A DNA stretch of 12,505 nucleotides from IMG/VR virus record IMGVR_UViG_2778261350_000008, positions 1 through 12,505 of that record, one strand, 5' to 3'. The notes under the pieces are model-generated. The model saw only the letters and a program-made list of their open reading frames with translations, had not been told where the DNA came from and ran no database searches. The position numbers and the translations under genes are program-made. This stretch comes from a virus (Duplodnaviria; Heunggongvirae; Uroviricota; Caudoviricetes). Positions 600 to 12,505 of the stretch are shown here, piece after piece (positions within the stretch are counted from its first letter, which is position 1; the number at the start of each line of letters is the position of its first letter).

Positions 600-1297
600 T
601 GCAGGATATCCGACAGGAAACACTGAATGAATGCACCCGTGCGGAGCAGTCGGCCAGCGTGGTGCTCTGGGAAATCGATCTGACAGAGGTCGGTGGAGAA
701 CGTTATTTTTTCTGTAATGAGCAGAACGAAAAAGGCAAGTCGGTTATCTGGCAGGGGAGAGAGTATCAGGCGTATCCCATTCAGGGGAGTGGTTTTGAAC
801 GGAATGGCAAAGGTGCCAGTACGCGGCCCACGCTGGCAGTCTCTAACCTGTACGGCATGGTCACCGGTATGGTGGAAGATATGCAGAGTCTGGTCGGCGG
901 AACGGTGGTCCGGCGCAAGGTCTACGCCCGTTTTCTGGATGCGGTGAACTTCATCAACGGAAACAGCGACGCCGATCCGGAGCAGGAGGTGATCAGCCGC
1001 TGGCGCATTGAGCAGTGCAGCGAACTGAGCGCGGTGAGCGCCTCTTTTGTACTGGCCACGCCGACGGAAACGGATGGCGCTGTTTTCCCGGGGCGTGTCA
1101 TGCTGGCCAACACCTGCACCTGGACCTATCGCGGTGATGAGTGCGGTTATGATGGTCCGGCTGTCGCGGATGAATATGACCAGCCGACGTCCGATATCAC
1201 GAAGGATAAATGCAGCAAATGCCTGAGTGGCTGTAAGTTTCGCAATAACGTCGGCAACTTTGGCGGCTACCTTTCCATTAACAAACTTTCGCAGTAA
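599..1297 (+). CDS. L: Minor tail protein L
   Basis: 232 aa, the lambda gpL length. The start overlaps the M stop (TGATG). Cys-rich C-terminus (CTWTYRGDECGYDG...CSKCLSGCKF) as in gpL-family proteins. Confidence 0.9.
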   Translation: MQDIRQETLNECTRAEQSASVVLWEIDLTEVGGERYFFCNEQNEKGKSVIWQGREYQAYPIQGSGFERNGKGASTRPTLAVSNLYGMVTGMVEDMQSLVGGTVVRRKVYARFLDAVNFINGNSDADPEQEVISRWRIEQCSELSAVSASFVLATPTETDGAVFPGRVMLANTCTWTYRGDECGYDGPAVADEYDQPTSDITKDKCSKCLSGCKFRNNVGNFGGYLSINKLSQ

Positions 1298-1302
1298 ATC
1301 CC

Positions 1303-2046
1303 ATGACAGAGACAGAATCAGCGATTCTGGCGCACGCCCGGCGATGTGCGCCAGCGGAGTCGTGCGGCTTCGTGGTGAGAACGCCGGAGGGGGAAAGGTA
1401 TCTTCCCTGCGTGAATATCTCCGGTGAGCCGGAGGCGTATTTCCGGATGGCTCCGGAAGACTGGCTGCAGGCAGAGATGCAGGGTGAGATTGTGGCGCTG
1501 GTCCACAGCCATCCCGGTGGACTGCCCTGGCTGAGTGAGGCTGACCGGCGGCTGCAGGTGCAGAGTGATTTGCCGTGGTGGCTGGTCTGCCGGGGGGCGA
1601 TTCACAGGTTCCGCTGTGTGCCGCATCTTACCGGGCGGCGCTTTGAGCACGGGGTGACGGACTGTTACACGCTGTTCCGGGATGCTTACCATCTGGCGGG
1701 AATTGAGATGCCGGATTTTCATCGTGAGGATGACTGGTGGCGTAACGGTCAGAATCTCTATCTGGATAACCTTGAAAGACATGGTTTTTACCGTGTCGCA
1801 CTGACAGAGGCACAGCCGGGCGATGTGCTGCTGTGCTGCTTTGGTTCATCGGTGCCGAATCATGCCGCCATTTACTGCGGCGACGGTGAGCTGCTGCACC
1901 ATATTCCTGAACAACTGAGTAAACGAGAGAGGTACACCGACAAATGGCAGCGACGCACACACTCCCTCTGGCGTCACCGGGCATGGCACGCATCTGCCTT
2001 TACGGGGATTTGCAGCGATTTGGCCGCCGCATCGACCTTCGTGTGA
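1303..2046 (+). CDS. K: Tail tip assembly protein K (JAB/MPN-like plus NlpC/P60-like domains)
   Basis: 247-aa ORF starting 5 bp after L. Contains a JAMM-like motif HSHPGGLPWLSEAD (H-x-H-x7-S-x2-D) and an NlpC/P60-like Cys/His pair (GVTDCYTLF ... NHAAIYCGDGELLHH). An internal ATG at 1447 would give the 199-aa form usually annotated for lambda K. The 3' end overlaps I by 103 nt, as in lambda. Confidence 0.85.
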   Translation: MTETESAILAHARRCAPAESCGFVVRTPEGERYLPCVNISGEPEAYFRMAPEDWLQAEMQGEIVALVHSHPGGLPWLSEADRRLQVQSDLPWWLVCRGAIHRFRCVPHLTGRRFEHGVTDCYTLFRDAYHLAGIEMPDFHREDDWWRNGQNLYLDNLERHGFYRVALTEAQPGDVLLCCFGSSVPNHAAIYCGDGELLHHIPEQLSKRERYTDKWQRRTHSLWRHRAWHASAFTGICSDLAAASTFV

Positions 2047-2579
2047 AAACGGGGGCCGAAGCCATCCGGGCGCTGGTCACACAGCTTCCCGCCTTTCGTC
2101 AGAAACTGAACGACGGCTGGTATCAGGTACGCATTTCCGGACAGGATATATCCCATGAAACATTGTTCACACAGATGAATGACACACTGCCTCCGGGCGC
2201 GGTAATACATATTGTCCCTCGCCTGGAGGGGGCAAAAAACGGAGGGGTTTTTCAGGTCGTGGCCGGTGCTGTGCTTGCTGTTGTCGGTTATGCATTAAGC
2301 TGGACAGGCATAGGTGCGGTTATTGGCAACCTTGGTGTGGCCATGATGCTTGGAGGGGTGGCACAGATGCTGGCCCCTAAATCCAGAACTCCCCGTACAC
2401 AGACAACGGATAACGGCAAACAGAATACCTATTTTTCATCACTGGATAACATGATTGCCCAGGGGAATGTTCTGCCCGTTCTGTACGGTGAAATGCGCGT
2501 GGGGTCGCGGGTGGCATCTCAGGAGATCAGCACGGCAGATGAAGGGGATGGTGGCCAGATAGTGGTGATTGGTCGATGA
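1944..2579 (+). CDS. I: Tail assembly protein I
   Basis: 211 aa. N- and C-terminal regions match lambda gpI as recalled (MAATHTLPLASPGMARICLYGDLQRFGRR... ; ...NGKQNTYFSSLDNMIAQGNVLPVLYGEMRVGSRV...). A hydrophobic Gly/Ala-rich middle is present. Starts inside the 3' end of K in another frame. Confidence 0.85.
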   Translation: MAATHTLPLASPGMARICLYGDLQRFGRRIDLRVKTGAEAIRALVTQLPAFRQKLNDGWYQVRISGQDISHETLFTQMNDTLPPGAVIHIVPRLEGAKNGGVFQVVAGAVLAVVGYALSWTGIGAVIGNLGVAMMLGGVAQMLAPKSRTPRTQTTDNGKQNTYFSSLDNMIAQGNVLPVLYGEMRVGSRVASQEISTADEGDGGQIVVIGR

Positions 2580-2597
2580 TGAAATACGTTTTATGTG

Positions 2598-2626
2598 AAA
2601 CCGCCTCCGGGCGGTTTTGTCGTTTA
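2598..2626 (+). terminator. GC-rich hairpin plus T-rich tract in the I-J intergenic gap (terminator-like or attenuator-like)
   Basis: Inverted repeat AAACCGCC (2598-2605) / GGCGGTTT (2610-2617) with loop TCCG, followed by TGTCGTTT. It sits 14 bp before the J start, so it cannot be a fully efficient terminator if J is expressed. Confidence 0.35.
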
Positions 2627-2639
2627 TGGAGCGTGAGTA

Positions 2640-5600
2640 ATGGGTAAAGGTGGTGGTAAGGCGCATACGCCCCGTGAAGCCAGAGATAATCTGAAATCAT
2701 CCCAGATGCTGAGTGTGATTGATGCCATCAGCGAAGGACCGGTTTACGGGCCTGTTGACGGGCTGAAAAGCGTGTTTCTGAACGGCACGCCGGTACTGGA
2801 CCGTGAGGGGAATGCTAACTTTTCCGGTGTCACTGTGGTGTTCCGTGCCGGTGAACAGGAGCAGACACCACCGGAGGGCTTTGAATCCTCCGGTTCAGAA
2901 ACGGTGCTGGGGACGGAAGTGAAATATGACACGCCGATCACCCGGACCATCACGTCGGCAAATATCGATCGTCTGCGCCTGACCTTCGGCGTGCAGGCAC
3001 TGGTGGAAACCACCTCAAAGGGGGACCGTAACCCCTCTTCTGTCCGCCTGCTGGTTCAGATACAGCGTAACGGTGGCTGGGTGACGGAAAAAGACATCAC
3101 CATTAAGGGCAAAACCACGTCCCAGTATCTGGCCTCGGTGGTGGTGGATAACCTGCCGCCGCGACCGTTCAGTATCCGGATGCGCAGGATGACGCCGGAC
3201 AGCACCACAGACCAGTTACAGAACAAAACGCTCTGGTCGTCATACACTGAAATCATCGATGTGAAACAGTGCTACCCGAACACGGCACTGGTCGGCGTAC
3301 AGGTGGACTCGGAGCAGTTCGGCAGTCAGCAGGTGAGCCGCACTTACCATTTTCGGGGGCGTATTCTGCAGGTGCCGTCGAACTATAACCCGCAGACGCG
3401 GCAGTACAGTGGTATCTGGGACGGAACACTTAAACCGGCATACAGCAACAACCCGGCCTGGTGTCTGTGGGACATGCTGACCCATCCGCGCTACGGCATG
3501 GGGAAACGTCTTGGTGCGGCGGATGTGGACAAATGGGCGCTGTATGTCATCGGCCAGTACTGCGACCAGTCAGTGCCGGACGGCTTTGGTGGCACGGAGC
3601 CGCGCATCACCTGTAATGCCTGGCTGACCACACAGCGTAAGGCGTGGGATGTTCTCAGCGATTTCTGCTCGGCGATGCGCTGTATGCCGGTATGGAACGG
3701 GCAGACGCTGACGTTCGTGCAGGACCGGCCGTCGGATAAGGTGTGGACCTATAACCGAAGTAATGTGGTGATGCCGGATGATGGCGCTCCGTTCCGCTAC
3801 AGCTTCAGCGCCCTGAAGGACCGCCATAATGCCGTTGAGGTGAACTGGAGTGACCCGGATAACGGCCAGGAGACGGCGACAGAGCTTGTGGAGGACACAC
3901 AGGCCATTGCCCGTTACGGTCGTAACGTCACGAAGATGGATGCCTTTGGCTGTACCAGCCGGGGGCAGGCACACCGCGCCGGGCTGTGGCTGATTAAAAC
4001 AGAACTGCTGGAAACGCAGACCGTGGATTTCAGCGTCGGCGCAGAAGGGCTTCGCCATGTACCGGGCGATGTTATTGAAATCTGTGATGATGACTATGCG
4101 GGGATCAGCACCGGTGGTCGTGTGCTGGCGGTGAACAGCCAGACCCGGACGCTGACGCTCGACCGTGAAATCACGCTGCCATCCTCCGGCACCACGCTGA
4201 TAAGCCTGGTTGACGGAAGTGGCAATCCGGTCAGCGTGGAGGTTCAGTCCGTCACCGACGGTGTGAAGGTGAAAGTGAGCCGTGTTCCTGACGGCGTTGC
4301 AGAATACAGCGTGTGGGGGCTGAAGCTGCCGACGCTGCGCCAGCGCCTGTTCCGCTGCGTCAGTATCCGTGAGAACGATGACGGCACGTATGCCATCACC
4401 GCCGTGCAGCATGTACCGGAAAAAGAAGCCATCGTGGATAACGGGGCGCACTTTGACGGTGACCAGAGCGGCACGGTGAATGGTGTCACGCCGCCGGCAG
4501 TGCAGCATCTGACCGCCGAAGTCACCGCAGACAGCGGGGAATACCAGGTGCTGGCGCGATGGGACACGCCGAAGGTGGTGAAGGGTGTGAGCTTCCTGCT
4601 TCGTCTGACCGTGGCAGCGGACGACGGCAGTGAGCGGCTGGTCAGCACAGCCAGGACGACGGAAACCACATACCGCTTCAGGCAGCTGGCGCTGGGGCGT
4701 TACACGCTGACGGTACGGGCGGTAAATGCCCAGGGGCAGCAGGGGGATCCGGCGTCGGTATCGTTCCGGATTGCCGCACCGGCAGCGCCGTCACGGATTG
4801 AGCTGACGCCGGGCTATTTTCAGATAACCGCCACGCCGCATCTTGCGGTTTATGATCCGACGGTACAGTTTGAGTTCTGGTTCTCGGAAAAGCGGATTGC
4901 GGATATCAGGCAGGTTGAAACCACAGCCCGCTATCTTGGCACGGCGCTGTACTGGATAGCTGCCAGTATCAATATCAAACCGGGCCATGATTATTACTTT
5001 TATATCCGCAGTGTGAACACCGTTGGCAAATCGGCATTCGTGGAGGCTGTTGGTCAGCCGAGTGATGATCCATCCGGCTATCTGGATTTTTTCAAAGGAG
5101 AGATAGGGAAAACCCATCTGGCTCAGGAGCTGTGGACGCAGATTGATAACAGTCAGCTTGCGCCTGACCTGGCTGAAATCAGGACGTCCATTACGGGTGT
5201 CAGCAATGAAATCACGCAGACTGTCAATAAGACACTGGAAGACCAGAGTGCAGCGATCCAGCAGATACAGAAGGTTCAGGTTGATACCAGTAATGACCTG
5301 AACAGCATGTGGGCTGTGAAGCTGCAACAGATGAAGGACGGACGCCTTTATATCGCGGGTATTGGTGCCGGTATTGGGAACACCCCCGACGGCATGCAGA
5401 GTCAGGTGCTGCTGGCGGCAGACAGGATTGCGATGATTAATCCTGCAAATGGCAACACAAAGCCGATGTTTGTGGGGCAGGGCGATCAGATATTCATGAA
5501 CGACGTGTTCCTGAAATATCTGACGGCTCCCACCATTACCAGTGGTGGTAATCCTCCGGCATTTTCCCTGACACCGGACGGGCGGCTGACGGCGAAAAAT

Positions 5601-6119
5601 GCGGATATCAGCGGTAACGTGAACGCGAACTCCGGGACGCTCAACAATGTCACGATTAATCAGAACTGCCGGATTCTGGGAAAACTGTCAGCCAATCAGA
5701 TTGAAGGCGATCTCGTTAAAACAGTGGGCAAAGCTTTCCCGCGGGACTCCCGTGCACCGGAGCGGTGGCCATCAGGGACCATTACCGTCAGGATTTATGA
5801 CGATCAGCCGTTTGACCGGCAGATTGTTATTCCGGCGGTGGCTTTCCGCGGTGCCAGACATGAGCGGGAGAATAGCGATACTTATTCGTCATGCCGTCTG
5901 ATAGTGAAGAAAAACGGTGCTGAAATTTATAACCGAACGGCTCTGGATAATACGCTGATTTACACGGGTGTTATTGATATGCCTGCAGGCAGTGGCGTAA
6001 TGACACTGGAGTTTTCTGTATCAGCATGGTGGGTAAATGGCTGGTATCCCACAGCGAGTATCAGCGATTTGCTGGTTGTTGTGATGAAGAAATCCACTGC
6101 AGGCATCACGATTAGCTGA
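2640..6119 (+). CDS. J: Tail tip / host-specificity protein J (central tail fibre)
   Basis: 1159-aa ORF (lambda J is 1132 aa) directly after I. GGAG lies 9 nt upstream of the ATG. Position and size are diagnostic; the divergent C-terminal ~250 aa would be the receptor-binding part. Confidence 0.9.
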
Positions 6120-6186: not shown

Positions 6187-6786
6187 ATGCGTAAAGTTTG
6201 TGCCGCCATTTTGTCCGCTGCCATCTGTCTGGTCGTATCCGGTGCGCCTGCATGGGCGTCTGAGCAGCAGGCCACACTGAGTGCAGGGTATCTTCATGCC
6301 CGGACGAACGCTCCCGGCAGCGATAATCTGAACGGGATTAACGTGAAATACCGTTATGAGTTTACGGACACGCTGGGGCTGATTACGTCCTTCAGTTATG
6401 CCAGTGCCGAAGATGAGCGAAAAACGCACTACAGCGATACCCGCTGGCATGAAGATTCCGTGCGTAACCGCTGGTTCAGCGTGATGGCGGGGCCGTCTGT
6501 GCGCGTGAATGAATGGTTCAGCGCGTATGCGATGGCGGGTATGGCTTACAGCCGGGTGTCGACTTTTTCCGGGGATTATCTCCGCGTAGCTGACAACACG
6601 GGGAAAACGCACGATGTGCTGACCGGAAGTGCTGACGGTCGCCACAGCAACACGTCTCTGGCGTGGGGCGCTGGCGTGCAGTTTAACCCGACCGAATCCG
6701 TGGCCATTGATGTCGCTTATGAAGGTTCCGGCAGTGGCGACTGGCGTACTGACGGTTTCATCGTGGGTGTTGGTTATAAATTCTGA
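6187..6786 (+). CDS. lom: Lom / Ail / PagC-family outer-membrane beta-barrel protein (lysogenic-conversion type)
   Basis: 199 aa. N-terminal signal peptide MRKVCAAILSAAICLVVSGAPAWA. The C-terminus ...VDVAYEGSGSGDWRTDGFIVGVGYKF matches the lambda Lom C-terminus as recalled. GAGAGG RBS; lambda-like position after J. Confidence 0.85.
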   Translation: MRKVCAAILSAAICLVVSGAPAWASEQQATLSAGYLHARTNAPGSDNLNGINVKYRYEFTDTLGLITSFSYASAEDERKTHYSDTRWHEDSVRNRWFSVMAGPSVRVNEWFSAYAMAGMAYSRVSTFSGDYLRVADNTGKTHDVLTGSADGRHSNTSLAWGAGVQFNPTESVAIDVAYEGSGSGDWRTDGFIVGVGYKF

Positions 6787-6835: not shown

Positions 6836-6845
6836 TGGGGTGAAT

Positions 6846-9200
6846 ATGGCAGTAAAGATTTCAGGTGTACTGAAAGATGGTGCAGGTAAGCCGGTACAAA
6901 ACTGCACTATTCAACTGAAAGCCAGACGTAACAGCACCACGGTGGTGGTGAACACGGTGGCCTCAGAAAATCCGGATGAAGCAGGTCGTTACAGCATGGA
7001 TGTTGAGTACGGTCAGTACAGCGTCAGTCTGTTGGTGGAGGGGTTCCCGCCGTCACATGCCGGGACCATCACCGTCTATGAAGATTCCCGACCCGGTACG
7101 CTGAATGATTTTCTCGGTGCCATGACGGAGGATGATGCCCGTCCGGAGGCACTGCGGCGTTTTGAACTGATGGTGGAAGAAGCGGCACGTAACGCTGAAG
7201 CCGCCTCTAAGAGCGCAGCGGCGGCAAAGAAATCCGAAACTGCAGCGGCATCATCGAAGAACGCGGCGAAAACCTCAGAAACGAATGCAGCTAACAGCGC
7301 ACAGGCGGCAGCGACCTCACAGACTGCATCAGCAAACTCCGCGACAGCAGCCAAAAAATCAGAAACCAACGCGAAAAACAGCGAGACAGCCGCAAAGACG
7401 AGTGAAACTAACGCAAAGTCCAGCCAGACGGCAGCGAAGACCAGCGAAACGAATGCCAAAGCCAGTGAAACTGCGGCGAAAAGCAGTCAGGATGCAGCAG
7501 CCGAAAGCGAGAGTGCTGCAGCCGGTTCTGCGACTTCAGCAGCTGGATCAGCAACTGCTGCGGCTAACAGCCAGAAAGCCGCGAAGACGAGCGAAACTAA
7601 CGCAAAGTCCAGCCAGACGGCAGCGAAGACCAGCGAAACGAATGCCAAAGCCAGCGAAACTGCGGCGAAAAACAGTCAGGATGCAGCAGCCCAAAGCGAG
7701 AGTGCCGCAGCTGGTTCTGCAACAGCGGCAGCTAATAGCCAAAAAGCTGCAAAAACCAGTGAAACTAACGCAAAGACGAGTGAAACAAAAGCAGCAGCCA
7801 GCGAGACAGAAGCAACGTCAGCCGCAACAAGAGCAGAGAATGCAGCCCGGATTGCAGAAGATGCCGCTGATCCTGCTTCTGTCCCTCCGCTTCCTGATAT
7901 CTGGCTACCCTTGAATGATTCTCTGGAAGCGATAACAGGGTATGCCCCGGGCTATAAAACAATAACCATCGGCAGTGATGAAATAACAATGCCTGTTAAT
8001 GGCATATGCCAATTTAGCCGGGCTTCATCTGCAACGTATATTGATAAGTCCGGGCATATTACCGTGGCAGGGAATAACGTTCCTCGTTTTGAAAAATATG
8101 GTTTGCTGATAGAGAATCAGCGAACAAACATGTTCGTAAATAGTTTTAATCCTGATGCCTGGAATAAAAGCGGTGGTATATCTGTAACATCATCAACAGA
8201 TGAATTTGAGTTTAAATATGGACGTTTCACGGTAGGAAGCGATATAGCAGGAACGACAACAGGGCGAAATATATGCACAGTTGCTGGTAACAAAGGCATA
8301 GATGTGACTGGCGATGAACAGTACAGTAAAGGTCCGTATGTTACCGCGTCGTTCAGGGTAAGAAGTGATCTCAATGTTCGCGCACGTATCCGTTTTGAAC
8401 GGTATAACTCGGAAGGATACACCTTCCTTTGCGACGCCTATTTGTCATTACAGACCCATGAACTACAAATTACTGGTGGCAATGCCCAGCTATTAACAGC
8501 AAACTTTGAAATCGATCCAGGTAGTGGATGGATATATTTTCAGGCAACACTGAAATGTCTGCCAGAATGGGGAATGGTTGGTACGCAGCTGCAAATTGCA
8601 GCCGACAGAGCAGTGGGGGCTTTTGCAACAGGTGACTGGATAGAAGTAACCACCCCGCAATTCGAGTATGGTGCCTGTGCAACTTCCTTTATCATAACGA
8701 CAACAGAGCCAGCGACTCGTGCATCAGATTTATGTAAATTTCCGCTGATGAAAAATATGTATACCATGCCTTTTACGTTCATGGTGGAAGTCCATAAAAA
8801 CTGGTTTATTTCTCATAATGCTGCACCGCGTGTCATTGATTCAGAAAATCACCAGTCCGGAGGCCCATTTATTATGGGGTTTGGTTCTTCTGGAACTATC
8901 AGTCAGGATGGTTATTCGTATTGCGATATAGGCGGGGCTAACCGGCGTGTATATGAGTCATGCGGAGTAAGAGATCTCGTTATGGGATTCAGGGTTAAGG
9001 CTGACGGCATGACATGCTCATTTGCAAATAAGAATATAAGCACTGAAACCAAAACAGTATGGAAATATATTCGTGAAGCAGCCGTGATTCGTATCGGGGG
9101 GCAAACGACGACAGGATTACGACACCTTAATGGTCATATAAAAAACCTCCGTTTCTGGAACAGAGCATTGTCAGATACGCAGATTAAGGAATACGTATAA
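6846..9200 (+). CDS. stf: Side tail fibre protein, mosaic: lambda Stf-like N-terminus, Ala/Ser/Thr repeat shaft, foreign C-terminal receptor-binding region with a lectin-like (LamG/ConA-type) end
   Basis: N-terminus MAVKISGVLKDGAGKPVQNCTIQLKARRNSTTVVVN...VYEDSRPGTLNDFLGAMTEDDARPEALRRFELMVEE matches lambda Stf as recalled. The ORF track begins at a GTG (6840); the ATG at 6846 gives the lambda-like start. Residues ~120-330 are low-complexity SETNAK-type repeats. From about nt 7880 the DNA is visibly AT-richer, and the protein ends ...LRHLNGHIKNLRFWNRALSDTQIKEYV, which resembles the terminal strand motif of LamG-like jelly-roll domains. Confidence 0.8.
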   Translation: MAVKISGVLKDGAGKPVQNCTIQLKARRNSTTVVVNTVASENPDEAGRYSMDVEYGQYSVSLLVEGFPPSHAGTITVYEDSRPGTLNDFLGAMTEDDARPEALRRFELMVEEAARNAEAASKSAAAAKKSETAAASSKNAAKTSETNAANSAQAAATSQTASANSATAAKKSETNAKNSETAAKTSETNAKSSQTAAKTSETNAKASETAAKSSQDAAAESESAAAGSATSAAGSATAAANSQKAAKTSETNAKSSQTAAKTSETNAKASETAAKNSQDAAAQSESAAAGSATAAANSQKAAKTSETNAKTSETKAAASETEATSAATRAENAARIAEDAADPASVPPLPDIWLPLNDSLEAITGYAPGYKTITIGSDEITMPVNGICQFSRASSATYIDKSGHITVAGNNVPRFEKYGLLIENQRTNMFVNSFNPDAWNKSGGISVTSSTDEFEFKYGRFTVGSDIAGTTTGRNICTVAGNKGIDVTGDEQYSKGPYVTASFRVRSDLNVRARIRFERYNSEGYTFLCDAYLSLQTHELQITGGNAQLLTANFEIDPGSGWIYFQATLKCLPEWGMVGTQLQIAADRAVGAFATGDWIEVTTPQFEYGACATSFIITTTEPATRASDLCKFPLMKNMYTMPFTFMVEVHKNWFISHNAAPRVIDSENHQSGGPFIMGFGSSGTISQDGYSYCDIGGANRRVYESCGVRDLVMGFRVKADGMTCSFANKNISTETKTVWKYIREAAVIRIGGQTTTGLRHLNGHIKNLRFWNRALSDTQIKEYV
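7392..7748. repeat. In-frame tandem duplication inside the stf shaft (two units of about 189 and 168 bp)
   Basis: 7392-7580 and 7581-7748 are near-identical; unit 1 carries an extra 21 bp (7 aa, SAAGSAT). Each encodes AAKTSETNAKSSQTAAKTSETNAKASETAAK(S/N)SQDAAA(E/Q)SESAAAGSAT...AAANSQKA. Shorter, degenerate copies of the same motif flank it from about 7230 to 7800. Confidence 0.7.
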
Positions 9201-9469
9201 TGCGGGATATAACATTACGATTCGATAACAGAGAACAGTTTAACGCAATTGTATATGACAGTGGCCTGTTCAGTCTTGAAGAAGAAAATGGGATTCTTGT
9301 TGATGTTATTGGCGGCATTATTGATTACGAGGAGCCAGAAAACGAAAGATGTACAGGCATTGATCGCGGTGGTTTTTTCGTAAACATGAGGATTGTTGAT
9401 GGCAGTAAAAACATATCTTCTTTAATGCCTTTCATTACGACAGATCAGCATGTAAGGACATGGGCTTAA
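9200..9469 (+). CDS. Hypothetical 89-aa acidic protein, start-coupled to stf (candidate cognate fibre chaperone or accessory protein)
   Basis: Its ATG overlaps the stf stop (TAATG at 9198-9202). AAGGAA lies 8 nt upstream. AT-rich like the stf 3' half. I recognise no homologue. The same frame stays open for 39 codons after its TAA. Confidence 0.45.
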   Translation: MRDITLRFDNREQFNAIVYDSGLFSLEEENGILVDVIGGIIDYEEPENERCTGIDRGGFFVNMRIVDGSKNISSLMPFITTDQHVRTWA

Positions 9470-9593
9470 TGGAGCTTGCTTGTTCAGGTAGCCAGAGAAT
9501 CAGACGACAGAATAACAGCACTGGAAGAAGAAAACGCAGAATTAAGACAAAGATTATCTGCAATTGAGGCGGCGCTTGCGTCTGAATAATATT

Positions 9594-9618
9594 AAGGGGC
9601 CGAGCGCCCCGTTTTATT
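9594..9618 (+). terminator. Terminator-like hairpin ending the stf / small-ORF transcription unit
   Basis: Stem GGGGC (9596-9600) / GCCCC (9606-9610), loop CGAGC, followed by GTTTTATT. Confidence 0.45.
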
Positions 9619-9631
9619 GGGTAGGATGAAA

Positions 9632-10079: not shown

Positions 10080-11215
10080 GTGTCGACTCTGATTTCCGGC
10101 GTATTAAAAGATGGTGCAGGTATACCGCTGGCTGCCAGATTATCCTGAAATCCCGTGTAAACACCTCAGATGTGGTGATGTCTGTTGTTGCGCATATTGT
10201 AACCGGGCAAAACGGGGAATATGCGTTTGAGGCCCGGACGGGGAAGTACAGCGTTTATCTGAAGACTGACTGGCGTAATGAGTTTCAGGTTGGTGTTATT
10301 TCTGTTTATGAGGACTCACAACCGGGCACACTGAACGACTTCCTGATAGCAGTGAGTGATGCTGATTTGAAGCCGGACGTTCTGCGGCGGTTCGATGAGC
10401 TGGCGAGGCGTGTCCATGAAGACGCGAACAGCGCAGAACAGTTTGCCGGAGATGCCCGTCGTGCTGTGGATGAACTGGGCGGTAAGGTTCAGGACGATAT
10501 TCGTGACCGTACACCGGACCGTCTGGCTCTGCCCGGTGCTTACGGCTTCGGCGGAATATTCAGCCGCTCGGAAGCTCTGTCGTTTCAGGGGGTATCTGAT
10601 TTTGGTGCGTGGCTACAGAAAGCCACGCCGGGGCGTTATCCGGTCACTGTTGCGGATTCTTCTGCATTGCTGTTGGGCACCACGAAATTTAACGGCAACA
10701 TTGATGTGCTGTGGTCACCCTTTGATAACGACGGGTCGGACACAGCGCACAAATTCAAAACGCTGTTGTGTTACAACGAGCCACGTGCCGGAGAGCACGG
10801 GCTACACCTGCTCCAGTACTGGTACGAGGGCGACAACCTGCGGGTTGCGGGCAGTATGATAGTCTGCGACGCTCCGTCGCTGGCGACACTGCTGTCAGCA
10901 ACAGCGGGAGCGGACCCGTCAGGGTTCTACCGTTATCCGGCGGTGGGTTCCCTGTTGCTGGCAGCGTACCACGGGGCATCTGCCGGTGCTGGCGGGGTGA
11001 GTATTGCAACAGGCGACGTTGTTCCGGGCTCCTGTCTGGGGCCGGTGAGTATTCCGTGCGCGGTGAACGAAGGCGGCACAACTCCGTCGCCGCTGCGGGC
11101 GTTTGTTGGTGGTGCCGGACAGTACAATTTCCCCGGACGTTACCAGGCGTTATCCGGTGCAAATAATGTCCGTGGAAACAATGGGTTTATCTGTCTGTTT
11201 GTGCGCGTTGAGTAG
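10080..11215 (+). pseudogene. Second tail fibre gene (Stf N-terminal paralogue), disrupted by a 1-nt frameshift near 10131-10133
   Basis: The GTG at 10080 (GGAGGAG upstream) opens a frame reading VSTLISGVLKDGAGIPLAARLS*, which stops at 10146-10148. The -1 frame continues ...CQIILKSRVNTSDVV and joins the 347-aa ORF 10172..11215. The joined product aligns with the stf N-terminus (ISGVLKDGAG ; C-Q/T-I-x-LK ; VYEDSQPGTLNDFL ; LRRF-EL). The C-terminal part is Gly/Ala-rich and GC-rich. Confidence 0.6.
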
Positions 11216-11222
11216 GTGAGAA

Positions 11223-11816
11223 ATGAACGCAGTAAAAGATATTCGCAATCCGGTGCATCTCGGAAACGGCGCGGTTGACTGTGAGGTGCTGTTTGAGGGG
11301 CGCAGCGAGTACGTTGTTTATACGGCTGCGCCGGGCGACGCAGCCCCGACAGGTCAGCGTATCTGGCAGGAACTACAGAGCGGCAAATGGGGCGAAATTG
11401 CCCCGTTCACGGCCACGCCGGAACTGATAGCGGCGGCGAAGGATGCAAAACGTCAGGAAATTGAGGTGTGGCGTACCGAACAGGAAGCGCAGTCGTTCAC
11501 GTTTGAGTGGAACGGTCGAACCTGGAACGCGGGGCCGTCCTCACTGGCCCGGCTCACGCCTGCGATTACGGCGGCGGAATACGCCGGCGAGCAGGCTGTT
11601 ACCTGGAGCGATACAACCAACGAGCCGGTAAACCTGACAGTGCAGGAACTGAAATCGCTGGCCGTCGCACTGGCTCAGGCACTCTCTGAGCGGAACAACG
11701 CGATTTATCGTCGCCAGCGGGAGATGAAGGATACGTTAAACACCCTGGAGAATCTGGCAGAGGTGCAGGCGTTTAAGGTTGGAGAACAATCTATATTGGG
11801 GGTAAGCCGTATTTAG
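11223..11816 (+). CDS. Putative tail fibre assembly / chaperone protein (assigned by position)
   Basis: 197-aa ORF 8 bp after the stf2 stop, with AGGTGAG RBS. Contains a W-N-G-x-(T/A)-W motif ([11 protein letters not shown]) reminiscent of Tfa proteins (lambda Tfa has WNGTAW), but it lacks the lambda-type Tfa C-terminus seen in the remnant at 9936-10057. Confidence 0.5.
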
Positions 11817-12256: not shown

Positions 12257-12505
12257 TTAGCGAACAAACCACTCGTCAGCAGACTCCCAGGTATCTTTCA
12301 GCGTCTCCTGAACAAAAGTTTTTGCAGAATCTTTATCGGCGGTGCGAGTAACTGAAAGGCCATCGTTGCTGGTGGCTTTTATGATCACTTCTACATCGTC
12401 ATAACGCTTACTGATGCGTCGGGTTAATTCTTCCTTTAACGCATCCACAGCACCGTTTGGCATTTTAGTCATTTTTTCTTTGGCTATGCAGATCTCAATA
12501 CGCAT
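12257..12505 (-). CDS. DinI-family protein (DNA-damage-inducible protein I-like; modulator of RecA filament activity)
   Basis: 82 aa, [31 protein letters not shown]...[16 protein letters not shown]. Co-linear with E. coli DinI as recalled (MRIEVTIAK...AIDAL..EL.RRI...ETWESADDWFV). The ATG is the last three bases of the window (minus strand), so the promoter lies outside. Confidence 0.85.

Follow-up and report, generated by a model that had tools for sequence, protein, structure and literature searches.

The window, a stretch of 12,505 nucleotides from a virus of the Caudoviricetes (IMG/VR record IMGVR_UViG_2778261350_000008), carries a tandem repeat within a long open-reading frame, which raises the question of what the repeat encodes, how and when it arose, and whether its length differs between isolates. 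The original prediction, made from the sequence alone, was of an expandable fibre shaft with a recent duplication. Taken as a whole, the best explanation is very probably that region 7230–7800 is the mid-part of the α-helical shaft of the side tail fibre protein Stf of a lambdoid prophage, and that the duplicated module in it is old and inherited.

The gene is a side tail fibre gene of the ordinary kind found in lambda-type prophages. PF08400 matches residues 1–131 of Stf (E = 3.7e-70; 234.6 bits, cut-off 26.6), phrog_1419 covers the protein end to end, and the N-terminus matches the structure of residues 1–94 of Ur-lambda Stf (PDB code 9e7m) with E = 3.8e-51. The collar function of this N-terminal domain is taken from the work on Ur-lambda Stf (PMC12617516). 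The tail operon has the order M, L, K, I, J (2640–6119), Lom (6187–6786) and stf, so that stf lies at the end of the operon, 3' of J and lom, the same order as in lambda and in PhiR55_1. The latter is an inducible phage with a 96.9% identical gene labelled “side tail fiber protein”. An alternative GTG start for stf is present at 6840. The positions of the features are collected in Table 1.

Table 1. Features of the stf gene and its surroundings (positions in the window)
Feature	Position	Strand	Description or basis
stf, side tail fibre gene	6846–9200	+	intact ORF, 784 aa
N-terminal collar/anchor domain, aa 1–94	6846–7127	+	~90% identity to the solved Ur-lambda Stf collar
Antisense ORF, 127 aa	7076–7459	-	judged non-coding
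Coiled-coil shaft, 33 heptads, aa 111–341	7176–7868	+	pattern x-[A/N]-A-[K/A]-x-S-[E/Q/A]
Overlapping +1-frame ORF, 209 aa, Arg/Gln/Pro-rich	7285–7914	+	judged non-coding
Module copy 1, 189 nt, 9 heptads, TAAKTSE ... TAAANSQ	7386–7574	+	TRF, heptad layout, alignment
Perfect repeat core, 62 nt, longest exact repeat	7404–7465; second copy 7593–7654	+	
21 nt present in copy 1, missing from copy 2	7530–7553	+	pairwise alignment; placement ambiguous by a few bases
Further antisense ORFs	7548–7742; 7765–7989	-	
Module copy 2, 168 nt, 8 heptads, KAAKTSE ... TAAANSQ	7575–7742	+	155/168 identities to copy 1
Two heptads KAAKTSE TNAKTSE, third repeat of the module start	7743–7784	+	TRF (2.1 copies), heptad layout
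C-terminal receptor-binding region	7869–9197	+	GTA-spike-fibre-like putative β-sandwich and ConA/LamG-like C-terminal motif
Conserved 89-aa partner ORF	9200–9469	+	phrog_1361, E = 1.2e-29

The repeat was rightly predicted to lie in a fibre shaft, as it consists of heptads in the coiled-coil tract of stf. It is present at 7230–7800, but sits within a larger periodic tract of 33 consecutive 21-nt (7-residue) repeats, which runs from 7176 to 7868 with no phase breaks or stutters. Alanine occupies heptad position 3 in 32 of the 33 heptads and serine position 6 in 29 of them, in the same register as in lambda Stf. The core residues are thus small (Ala, Ser) as opposed to the usual Leu, Ile or Val; lambda Stf, a fibre that has been observed experimentally, shows this pattern too. 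The AF2 model of the monomer contains helices at residues 98–227 and 236–340 (mean pLDDT 81.7), separated by a break at Gly-containing heptads (residues 228–235), which could be either a real hinge or an artefact of modelling a single chain.

In Ur-lambda, residues 102–393 of gpStf form a trimeric proximal coiled coil, and the Stf trimers, four per virion, are attached at the gpV/gpM junction (PMC12617516). The shaft tract likely corresponds to this proximal coiled coil, and its homology to Ur-lambda gpStf suggests a trimer of chains wound together. With the canonical helix rise of 0.148 nm per residue, the shaft would be ~34 nm long. From the tail outward, the collar would dock on the tail, followed by the Ala/Ser-core shaft and then by the presumed β-sandwich of the receptor-binding region, which the shaft would keep at a distance from the tail tip. 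According to RefSeq, the identical prophage has a frameshifted tape measure gene, so that this particular fibre may never be assembled.

The C-terminal region is matched by NF048003 (GTA head spike fibre domain) over residues 421–626 (nt 8106–8723, E = 1.8e-12, 48.2 bits, cut-off 36), and Laminin_G_3 scores 23 bits, below its threshold. An AF2 model of the C-terminal 443 residues, built from a 14-sequence alignment, has a pLDDT of 42, with values of 55–87 in the NF048003 stretch. A Foldseek search with this poor model returned the fibres of phages Pa193 and E217, CBM4/16/17/30 and lectins, at TM-scores not above 0.26, and gives only a hint that the region might be a carbohydrate-binding β-sandwich. 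A scan of a one-genome-per-species contig set with the C-terminal domain yielded no confirmed relative, a result that carries little information, as only particular strains of E. coli have the gene. The 89-residue ORF downstream has no Pfam or NCBIfam match, and an ORF of 89–93 residues is also located 3' of stf in PhiR55_1, PhiR49_1, ev207 and two further loci (L118 and L119). A lambda-style gp37-like distal domain with a gene for a Tfa-type chaperone was not found; the C-terminus matches NF048003 and phrog_1419/5939 instead and is followed by the 89-residue ORF, which indicates a different distal subtype of Stf.

The tandem 168/189-bp duplication with its 21-bp indel is recovered in agreement by TRF, global alignment and comparison of the tract with itself at successive lags. 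With TRF, a period of 189 nt is scored 625 at 7377–7720, with 1.8 copies and 94% matches, and the same period is reported at 7391–7793 with 2.1 copies and 84% matches. Globally aligned, the two copies show 155 matches, 13 mismatches and one 21-nt gap, and 10 of the 13 mismatches are synonymous. At a lag of 189 the self-identity reaches 94.6% across 147 nt; other lags that are multiples of 21 nt give 52–67%, those outside such multiples at most 45.6%, and none of 500 shuffles of the heptad order exceeded 77.6%. The modules are 92% identical overall, and “near-identical” was an overstatement.

In heptad register, the extra unit of copy 1 is TSAAGSA (7533–7553). Comparison with the 189-nt versions of copy 2 found in other alleles points to a loss of 21 nt from copy 2, between GCAGCT and TCAGCC. 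The most likely origin of the duplication of the nine-heptad (189-nt) module is an unequal homologous exchange between repeats in heptad phase, and the second copy most likely lost its one heptad when short GC(A/T)GC(T/C) repeats slipped or recombined. Unequal recombination or slippage was also the kind of event originally proposed, and to this extent the proposal holds. The shaft is free of Chi sites (GCTGGTGG), and the sole one in the window is located at 12368.

The recent age originally assigned to the duplication is not supported. The arrangement of nine plus eight heptads (9+8) is found in 74 of 74 protein clusters bearing the window-type receptor-binding domain and in 27 of 28 IMG/VR loci, which comprise 20 distinct protein variants, and the gene has the same length in 58 of the 60 best complete-genome hits. 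The one odd locus, L099, carries the same receptor-binding domain with one heptad more. The layout is common to alleles that are 3–4% diverged from the window, including metagenome contigs and phages such as PhiR55_1, and the paralogous distance between the two copies (12.9/144) is larger than the orthologous distances (7.3 and 4.3). Together with the predominantly synonymous differences between the copies, this indicates that the two-copy module is old, inherited and essentially fixed in this allele group, and both the duplication and the loss of the heptad are old in comparison with those alleles of the fibre type that were sampled.

A duplication that is recent in this isolate or lineage, with a copy number differing among close relatives, would be in line with the 62-nt perfect core, with the high identity over 147 nt, with the additional heptad of L099 and with the genuinely recent triplications in a sister allele group. 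The 13 differences between the copies, the sharing of 9+8 by diverged alleles, phages and metagenome contigs, and the excess of paralogous over orthologous distance speak against it, and this explanation is largely refuted and very unlikely. For the duplication, “old” refers to the architecture and not to every base. Nine polymorphic sites are common to both copies where three are expected (P = 4e-4), an excess which shows that some exchange between the copies continues. Strong concerted evolution was considered and rejected, as copies within a gene are no more alike than copies between genes, with the modest excess of shared polymorphism remaining.

The shaft was predicted to be expandable and its length to vary between isolates. 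Expandability is borne out in the wider Stf family, where relatives have zero, one, two or three modules; within the allele group of the window, the only length variant is the one locus of 28 that differs by one heptad. The shaft of ev243 has 19.7 heptads and no full module, that of IdasGreatGrand has 25.7 heptads with one module made of a copy-1 head and a copy-2 tail, and those of ev207 and PhiR49_1 have 34.7 heptads in a 9+9 arrangement. Three modules occur in three draft E. coli assemblies (clusters P0076–78), where the extra unit bears the private variant of that allele and the crossover points differ by allele. None was present in the top 40 complete E. coli genome hits, out of roughly 970 complete E. 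coli genomes with this shaft, and these alleles are known from draft assemblies alone. At least two independent gains of a whole nine-heptad module have taken place, probably through unequal crossover.

The end of the shaft in relatives was placed at the first proline after the collar, since Val, His and Tyr occur inside the relatives' coils. Measured from residue 112 to that proline, the shaft has 373 residues in 61 of 74 cases in a set of 80 IMG/VR loci closest by their N-terminal domain, and a general hypervariability of Stf shafts is accordingly rejected. Sister types of receptor-binding domain are found on shafts of 20, 26, 34, 35 or 44 heptads, those of 34 being 9+8 but unlike the window at the distal end. 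Nearly all of the length changes are multiples of seven residues, which means that the coiled-coil register is kept in those that survive; P0085 has a 16-residue deletion that is out of heptad phase. Family-wide, the module occurs zero to three times, with single heptads gained and lost, and shaft length would change in steps of ~1 nm for a heptad or ~9 nm for a module.

It is also conceivable that the tract is a high-frequency contingency locus, in which slippage switches or tunes the fibre within populations. The 21-nt periodicity and the single-heptad and whole-module indels of the family are compatible with this, but the heptads are just 52–67% identical at the DNA level, every unit has a length in nucleotides divisible by 3 and slippage therefore cannot toggle the reading frame, and the length is invariant in all clusters of the allele type and in all of its loci except one, which makes such a locus highly improbable. 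A different role for length is put forward tentatively and is rather doubtful: that selection acts on shaft length, which would be adjusted heptad by heptad to suit the receptor-binding domain, with the module serving both as a length adjuster of ~9 nm and as a preferred splice site for anchors and receptor-binding domains. The window-type domain occurs almost only with 33 heptads. If this reading is true, the fibres might reach receptors under O-antigen or capsule layers of differing thickness.

The long ORFs predicted on both strands of the repeat do exist. The +1 frame is stop-free over a 696-nt tract in nearly all alleles, and the record of lambda contains an equivalent antisense ORF, orf206b, inside its own coil, both of which could be taken to mean that the ORFs at 7285–7914 and 7076–7459 are real genes and that the repeat is maintained for them. 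Against this, 51 of the 77 sites of allelic variation are third codon positions when read as stf, 43 variable codons are purely synonymous in that frame, and the products would be low-complexity strings of Arg/Gln/Pro or Ala/Phe/Leu. Real overlapping genes are therefore extremely improbable; the ORFs look like by-products of codon composition, as open alternative frames are expected from the GCN/AAR/ACN/AGY codon usage. An assembly artefact, with units of the tandem repeat collapsed or expanded, had been raised as a concern; repeats are a classic source of misassembly, and many database proteins of the family are “partial” at contig ends. Such an artefact is unlikely to the point of being nearly negligible, because eight independent complete genomes are 100% identical across the 2361 nt of the gene and dozens more are equal in length, 13 sites distinguish the copies, no exact repeat reaches ordinary read length and the partial proteins stop at residues 550–690, past the repeat.

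The low-complexity shaft is also a joint, to which receptor-binding domains of various types have been spliced, as has at least one other N-terminal anchor. At the DNA level, similarity to the stf genes of other phages stops within the tract, at query positions 473, 585, 630 and 894, and in P0067 a different anchor is fused within copy 1. Homologous or homeologous recombination is described as the means by which Stf genes trade parts with other prophages (De Paepe 2014, PMC3945230).

The repeat is nothing unusual in a protein family that is already known and does not represent a new kind of system, and its importance is mainly practical, in annotation and engineering. In RefSeq this intact gene appears in two parts, as a “pseudogene” at the N-terminal end and as a protein of its own with the label “head spike fiber domain”, and 7222–7988 is left unannotated, although the same gene is annotated whole in other genomes. 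The heptad shaft explains both this splitting and the under-annotation, and its recognition resolves the inconsistency and flags the overlapping ORFs, like orf206b of lambda, as non-genes. Alleles with zero, one, two or three modules on near-identical fibres make up a natural set for testing side-fibre length against adsorption, and they point to a position at which fibres can tolerate being lengthened, shortened or re-targeted.

Mosaic tail fibre genes, with recombination of their distal or receptor-binding parts and invertase-linked cassettes, are said to have been described by Haggard-Ljungquist in 1992 and by Sandmeier in 1992 and 1994. The similarity breakpoints inside the heptad tract and the alternative N-terminal anchor fused within it resemble these cases. 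As far as the searches reached, the studies of mosaic tail fibres contain no account of a varying number of heptad-phased modules in the proximal shaft, and searches for the SETNAK/TSETNA/KSETNA motif, heptads or duplication in tail fibre shafts returned nothing relevant.

Among the closest known systems are sister Stf alleles from prophages and phages of E. coli (ev207, PhiR49_1, Tritos and 2G7b, and clusters P0083, P0091 and P0114), which share the collar and the shaft with both copies, at ~91–93% DNA identity up to window position 7733. In these alleles copy 2 retains all nine heptads (189+189), the last four shaft heptads and the type of receptor-binding domain are unlike those of the window, and the C-terminal domain is of the same family with ~50% identity. 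The one-module (IdasGreatGrand) and three-module (P0076–78) alleles also belong to this group.

The T5-like L-shaped tail fibre (PDB code 8hqz, chain d) has N-proximal Ala/Ser-rich heptads with SE(L/T)NAK-type motifs and aligns to residues 154–345 of Stf with E = 4.7e-6. It comes from a different phage group and has a different anchor and different distal domains; the likeness is limited to the low-complexity heptads and may be partly compositional.

Ur-lambda gpStf (PDB codes 9e7m and 9mgh; Yu et al. 2025, PMC12617516) has a ~90% identical collar and shares the position after J and lom. Its collar is likewise followed directly by Ala/Ser-core heptads in the same register, of which there are at least 36 in lambda and 33 here. 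Unlike the Stf of the window, the lambda shaft shows no large tandem module in its heptad layout. Beyond the shaft, the lambda fibre has a hinge, then a gp37-like distal domain and a tip that binds OmpC, and Tfa comes next, whereas here the shaft joins directly to what appears to be a GTA-spike-fibre/CBM-like β-sandwich, followed by the 89-residue ORF.

The window holds the distal part of a lambda-like prophage tail operon, identified by Pfam matches and listed in the table. The region 7230-7800, described in the original prediction as an expandable SETNAK-type shaft with a recent 168/189-bp tandem duplication, lies entirely within the ORF of stf, the side tail fibre gene. Its product matches the solved Ur-lambda gpStf collar domain (PDB code 9e7m, E=3.8e-51) with ~90% identity over residues 1-94. 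The stf stretch occurs at 100% identity in 8 complete E. coli genomes, in one of which (NZ_CP063046) it adjoins an integrase and dusA, themselves neighbours. The tape measure gene of this identical prophage, upstream of the window (L001 1-1434), is flagged by PGAP as frameshifted, so the prophage may be defective. The same gene, annotated as Stf and 96.9% identical, is carried by PhiR55_1, a phage grown on E. coli C, and this fibre type is therefore found in viable phages.

Features of the tail operon, fibre gene and downstream region, in window coordinates
Feature	Position	Strand	Remark
Minor tail proteins M and L, K-like JAB/NlpC peptidase, I-like protein			Pfam
Tip attachment protein J	2640-6119		Pfam
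Lom	6187-6786		Pfam
stf, 784-aa ORF	6846-9200	+	first 131 residues match PF08400 "prophage tail fibre N-terminal", E=3.7e-70
PGAP N-terminal "pseudogene"	6846-7221		NZ_CP063046 annotation
PGAP "phage head spike fiber domain-containing protein"	7989-9200		NZ_CP063046 annotation
Copy 1	7386-7574	+	9 heptads
Copy 2	7575-7742	+	8 heptads
+1-frame ORF	7285-7914		209 aa, Arg/Gln/Pro-rich
Antisense ORFs	7076-7459, 7548-7742, 7765-7989	-	
89-aa ORF	9200-9469		phrog_1361, overlaps the stf stop codon
Insertion, 2.27 kb	9910-12180		extra relative to PhiR55_1
Second stf-like ORF	10172-11215		in the insertion; N-terminally truncated, ~5 heptads
DUF4376 protein	11223-11816		in the insertion
YkgJ-like ORF			in the insertion

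The stretch 7176-7868 encodes 33 successive 7-residue repeats, in frame and with a phase that is never broken. The tandem duplication predicted within it is genuine and statistically unambiguous: TRF finds a 189-nt period (score 625), and copy 1 and copy 2 share 155 of 168 aligned bases, with 13 differing sites and, as predicted, a 21-bp indel, a single 21-nt gap equal to one heptad. Self-identity at lag 189 reaches 94.6% over 147 nt as compared with 52-67% at other heptad lags, and none of 500 shuffles of the heptad order exceeded 77.6%. An assembly artefact, a concern raised with the prediction, is countered by the 8 identical complete genomes and by the length of the longest perfect repeat in the shaft, 62 nt.

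The repeat is the proximal coiled-coil shaft of the side tail fibre, as indicated by the identity of the collar, the register shared with lambda and a helical AF2 model. According to the Ur-lambda structural paper (PMC12617516), the gpStf collar (residues 1-91) is followed by a linker, then by a trimeric proximal coiled coil (102-393), and then by a hinge and the distal domain. The lambda Stf tract shares its register with the window shaft from residue 111, with Ala at heptad position 3 in 31 of 38 heptads (32 of 33 in the window) and Ser at position 6 in 26 of 38 (29 of 33). A single-chain AF2 model of residues 95-360 (mean pLDDT 81.7) is helical at 98-227 and 236-340. Given a helical rise of 0.148 nm per residue, the shaft would be ~34 nm long, to which the second module would contribute ~8 nm. 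The modelled helix is broken only at Gly-containing heptads (residues 228-235, AAGSATSA, window 7527-7550), which coincide with the site of the one-heptad indel, while the equivalent Gly heptad of copy 2 stays helical. Either a hinge or an artefact of modelling a single chain could account for this break; similar fold-back artefacts in single predictions were noted by the lambda authors (PMC12617516).

The proposal that the duplication is recent is not supported. Ten of the 13 differences between the copies are synonymous, and a single-piece alignment of equal length is obtained for 58 of the best 60 complete-genome matches (96-100% identity). In the two others (H45 and H60) an IS2 or IS3-family element, ~1.3 kb long, interrupts the otherwise conserved gene. 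The exact layout of nine plus eight heptads (9+8) is present in 27 of the 28 IMG/VR loci that share the C-terminal domain of the window (20 distinct shaft proteins), L099 being 9+9, and a 232-residue shaft in all 74 protein clusters with this C-terminal type within the top 120. Across alleles, the two copies within a gene differ at a mean of 12.9 of 144 comparable sites, on par with copies from different genes (12.5), while orthologous copies differ less (7.3 for copy 1 and 4.3 for copy 2), and the duplication therefore predates the sampled allele diversity. Strong concerted evolution is ruled out by the same parity of within-gene and between-gene distances. Fixed differences between the copies amount to one site, and 9 sites show the same-base polymorphism in both copies against 3 expected (P=4e-4; P=0.02 for third positions alone), an excess suggesting that exchange between the copies probably still goes on occasionally.

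Expandability holds at the level of the wider family. Among fibres with the same collar and proximal shaft as the window, ev243 lacks a complete module (19.7 heptads), IdasGreatGrand has one (25.7), the window type is 9+8 (33), ev207 and PhiR49_1 are 9+9 (34.7), and the alleles P0076, P0077 and P0078 are 9+9+9 (43.7). The predicted variation in length between isolates is thus seen across this family, with 0-3 modules, but not within the allele type of the window. Length differences are nearly always multiples of seven residues (42, 63, 105, 112), with the exception of the singleton P0085, which has a 16-residue deletion close to the shaft end.

Unequal recombination or slippage, the mechanism originally suggested, suits the family, in which products of the crossover type are found. 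The lone module of IdasGreatGrand begins with copy-1 states and ends with those of a 189-type copy 2, as would be expected had one module been lost through an unequal crossover. The three-module, 854-aa alleles come from 3 different draft E. coli assemblies (L118 3001-5565; L121 and L122, both 1001-3565), and the extra unit of each bears its own private copy-1 variant (TAMANSQ, TNTKSSQ or TATANSQ). The point where head gives way to tail falls between nt 23 and 92 in one and between nt 1 and 5 in the other two, which together with the private variants implies at least two independent and recent unequal crossovers. One of these alleles contains a 257-nt perfect repeat at lag 189. The top 40 complete genomes include no three-module allele; the state is therefore rare and so far based on draft assemblies. 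Set against the 189-nt version of copy 2, the 168-nt version appears to have arisen by a putative 21-nt deletion, AGCGCGGCAGCT[GCTTCTGCCACTGCATCAGCC]AACAGTCAA, located between similar hexamers, off the heptad boundary in the DNA and with the heptad phase kept. A further 8-heptad copy 2 (P0080, SAAAGSA TASANSQ) seems to have arisen separately.

The +1 frame is stop-free over a 696-nt tract, and the predicted overlapping ORFs are present on both strands. Their description as spurious is supported: among 21 distinct alleles of the same length, 77 sites vary, 51 of them at third codon positions of stf, and 43 of the 68 codons that vary do so by synonymous changes only, showing that selection acts on stf. 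In P0084 some ten codons are read in the +1 frame (ARPRRLHRQT for ATSQTASANS) before the frame is restored, through paired compensating frameshifts or sequencing errors; the absence of stops in the +1 frame allows such a stretch to be tolerated. In NZ_CP063046, RefSeq/PGAP splits the intact stf (L001 8007-10361) and leaves the repeat, 7222-7988, without annotation, while in other genomes the same gene is annotated as one CDS.

Within the C-terminal 443 residues, the NCBIfam model NF048003 (GTA head spike fibre domain) scores 48.2 bits, above its cut-off of 36, at residues 421-626; phrog_1419 and phrog_5939 match as well, with a sub-threshold ConA/LamG-like match at the extreme C-terminus. The C-terminal allelic types, ~50% identical to one another, have a conserved framework in common. 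The AF2 model of this region is poor (pLDDT 42) and Foldseek gives it weak matches, with fibre proteins of Pseudomonas phages and with carbohydrate-binding modules, so that a glycan-binding beta-sandwich is only suggested. Dozens of "partial" database entries of this Stf protein (P0004-P0075) end at ~aa 550-690, indicating that draft assemblies often break in the C-terminal half and not in the repeat, possibly owing to sequence in common with other prophage fibre genes. The 89-aa ORF is a candidate fibre assembly factor because it is kept downstream of every examined stf of this C-terminal family. The 227-aa gene that follows it in PhiR55_1 is mostly gone from the window, with 149 nt (9474-9623) remaining of ~690 nt.

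The repeat is inherited and belongs to a Stf allele that is widespread: of 5426 complete E. coli genomes, ~970 have related shafts. Such repeats are ordinary among phage fibre shafts, and the modest value of this one lies in the natural series of 0-3 modules and in the trouble it makes for annotation. The lambda record still lists the antisense orf206b in the heptad tract of its stf (orf-401; NC_001416 20147-20767, minus strand; L120 648-1268), a composition-driven ORF of the same kind as that at 7076-7459. The shaft also serves as a joint. Within it lie the points where DNA similarity to other phage stf genes ends: query positions 473, 585, 630 and 894 (window 7312, 7424, 7469 and 7733). In P0067 (L119 6001-8157) an unrelated N-terminal anchor (phrog_22609/3299) precedes a window-type shaft and receptor-binding domain, the fusion point falling within copy 1; in the tail operon of P0067, J is of another kind (1386 aa) and lom is absent. 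Both the end points and this fusion fit the published exchange of stf segments between lambda and resident prophages through relaxed homologous recombination (PMC3945230).
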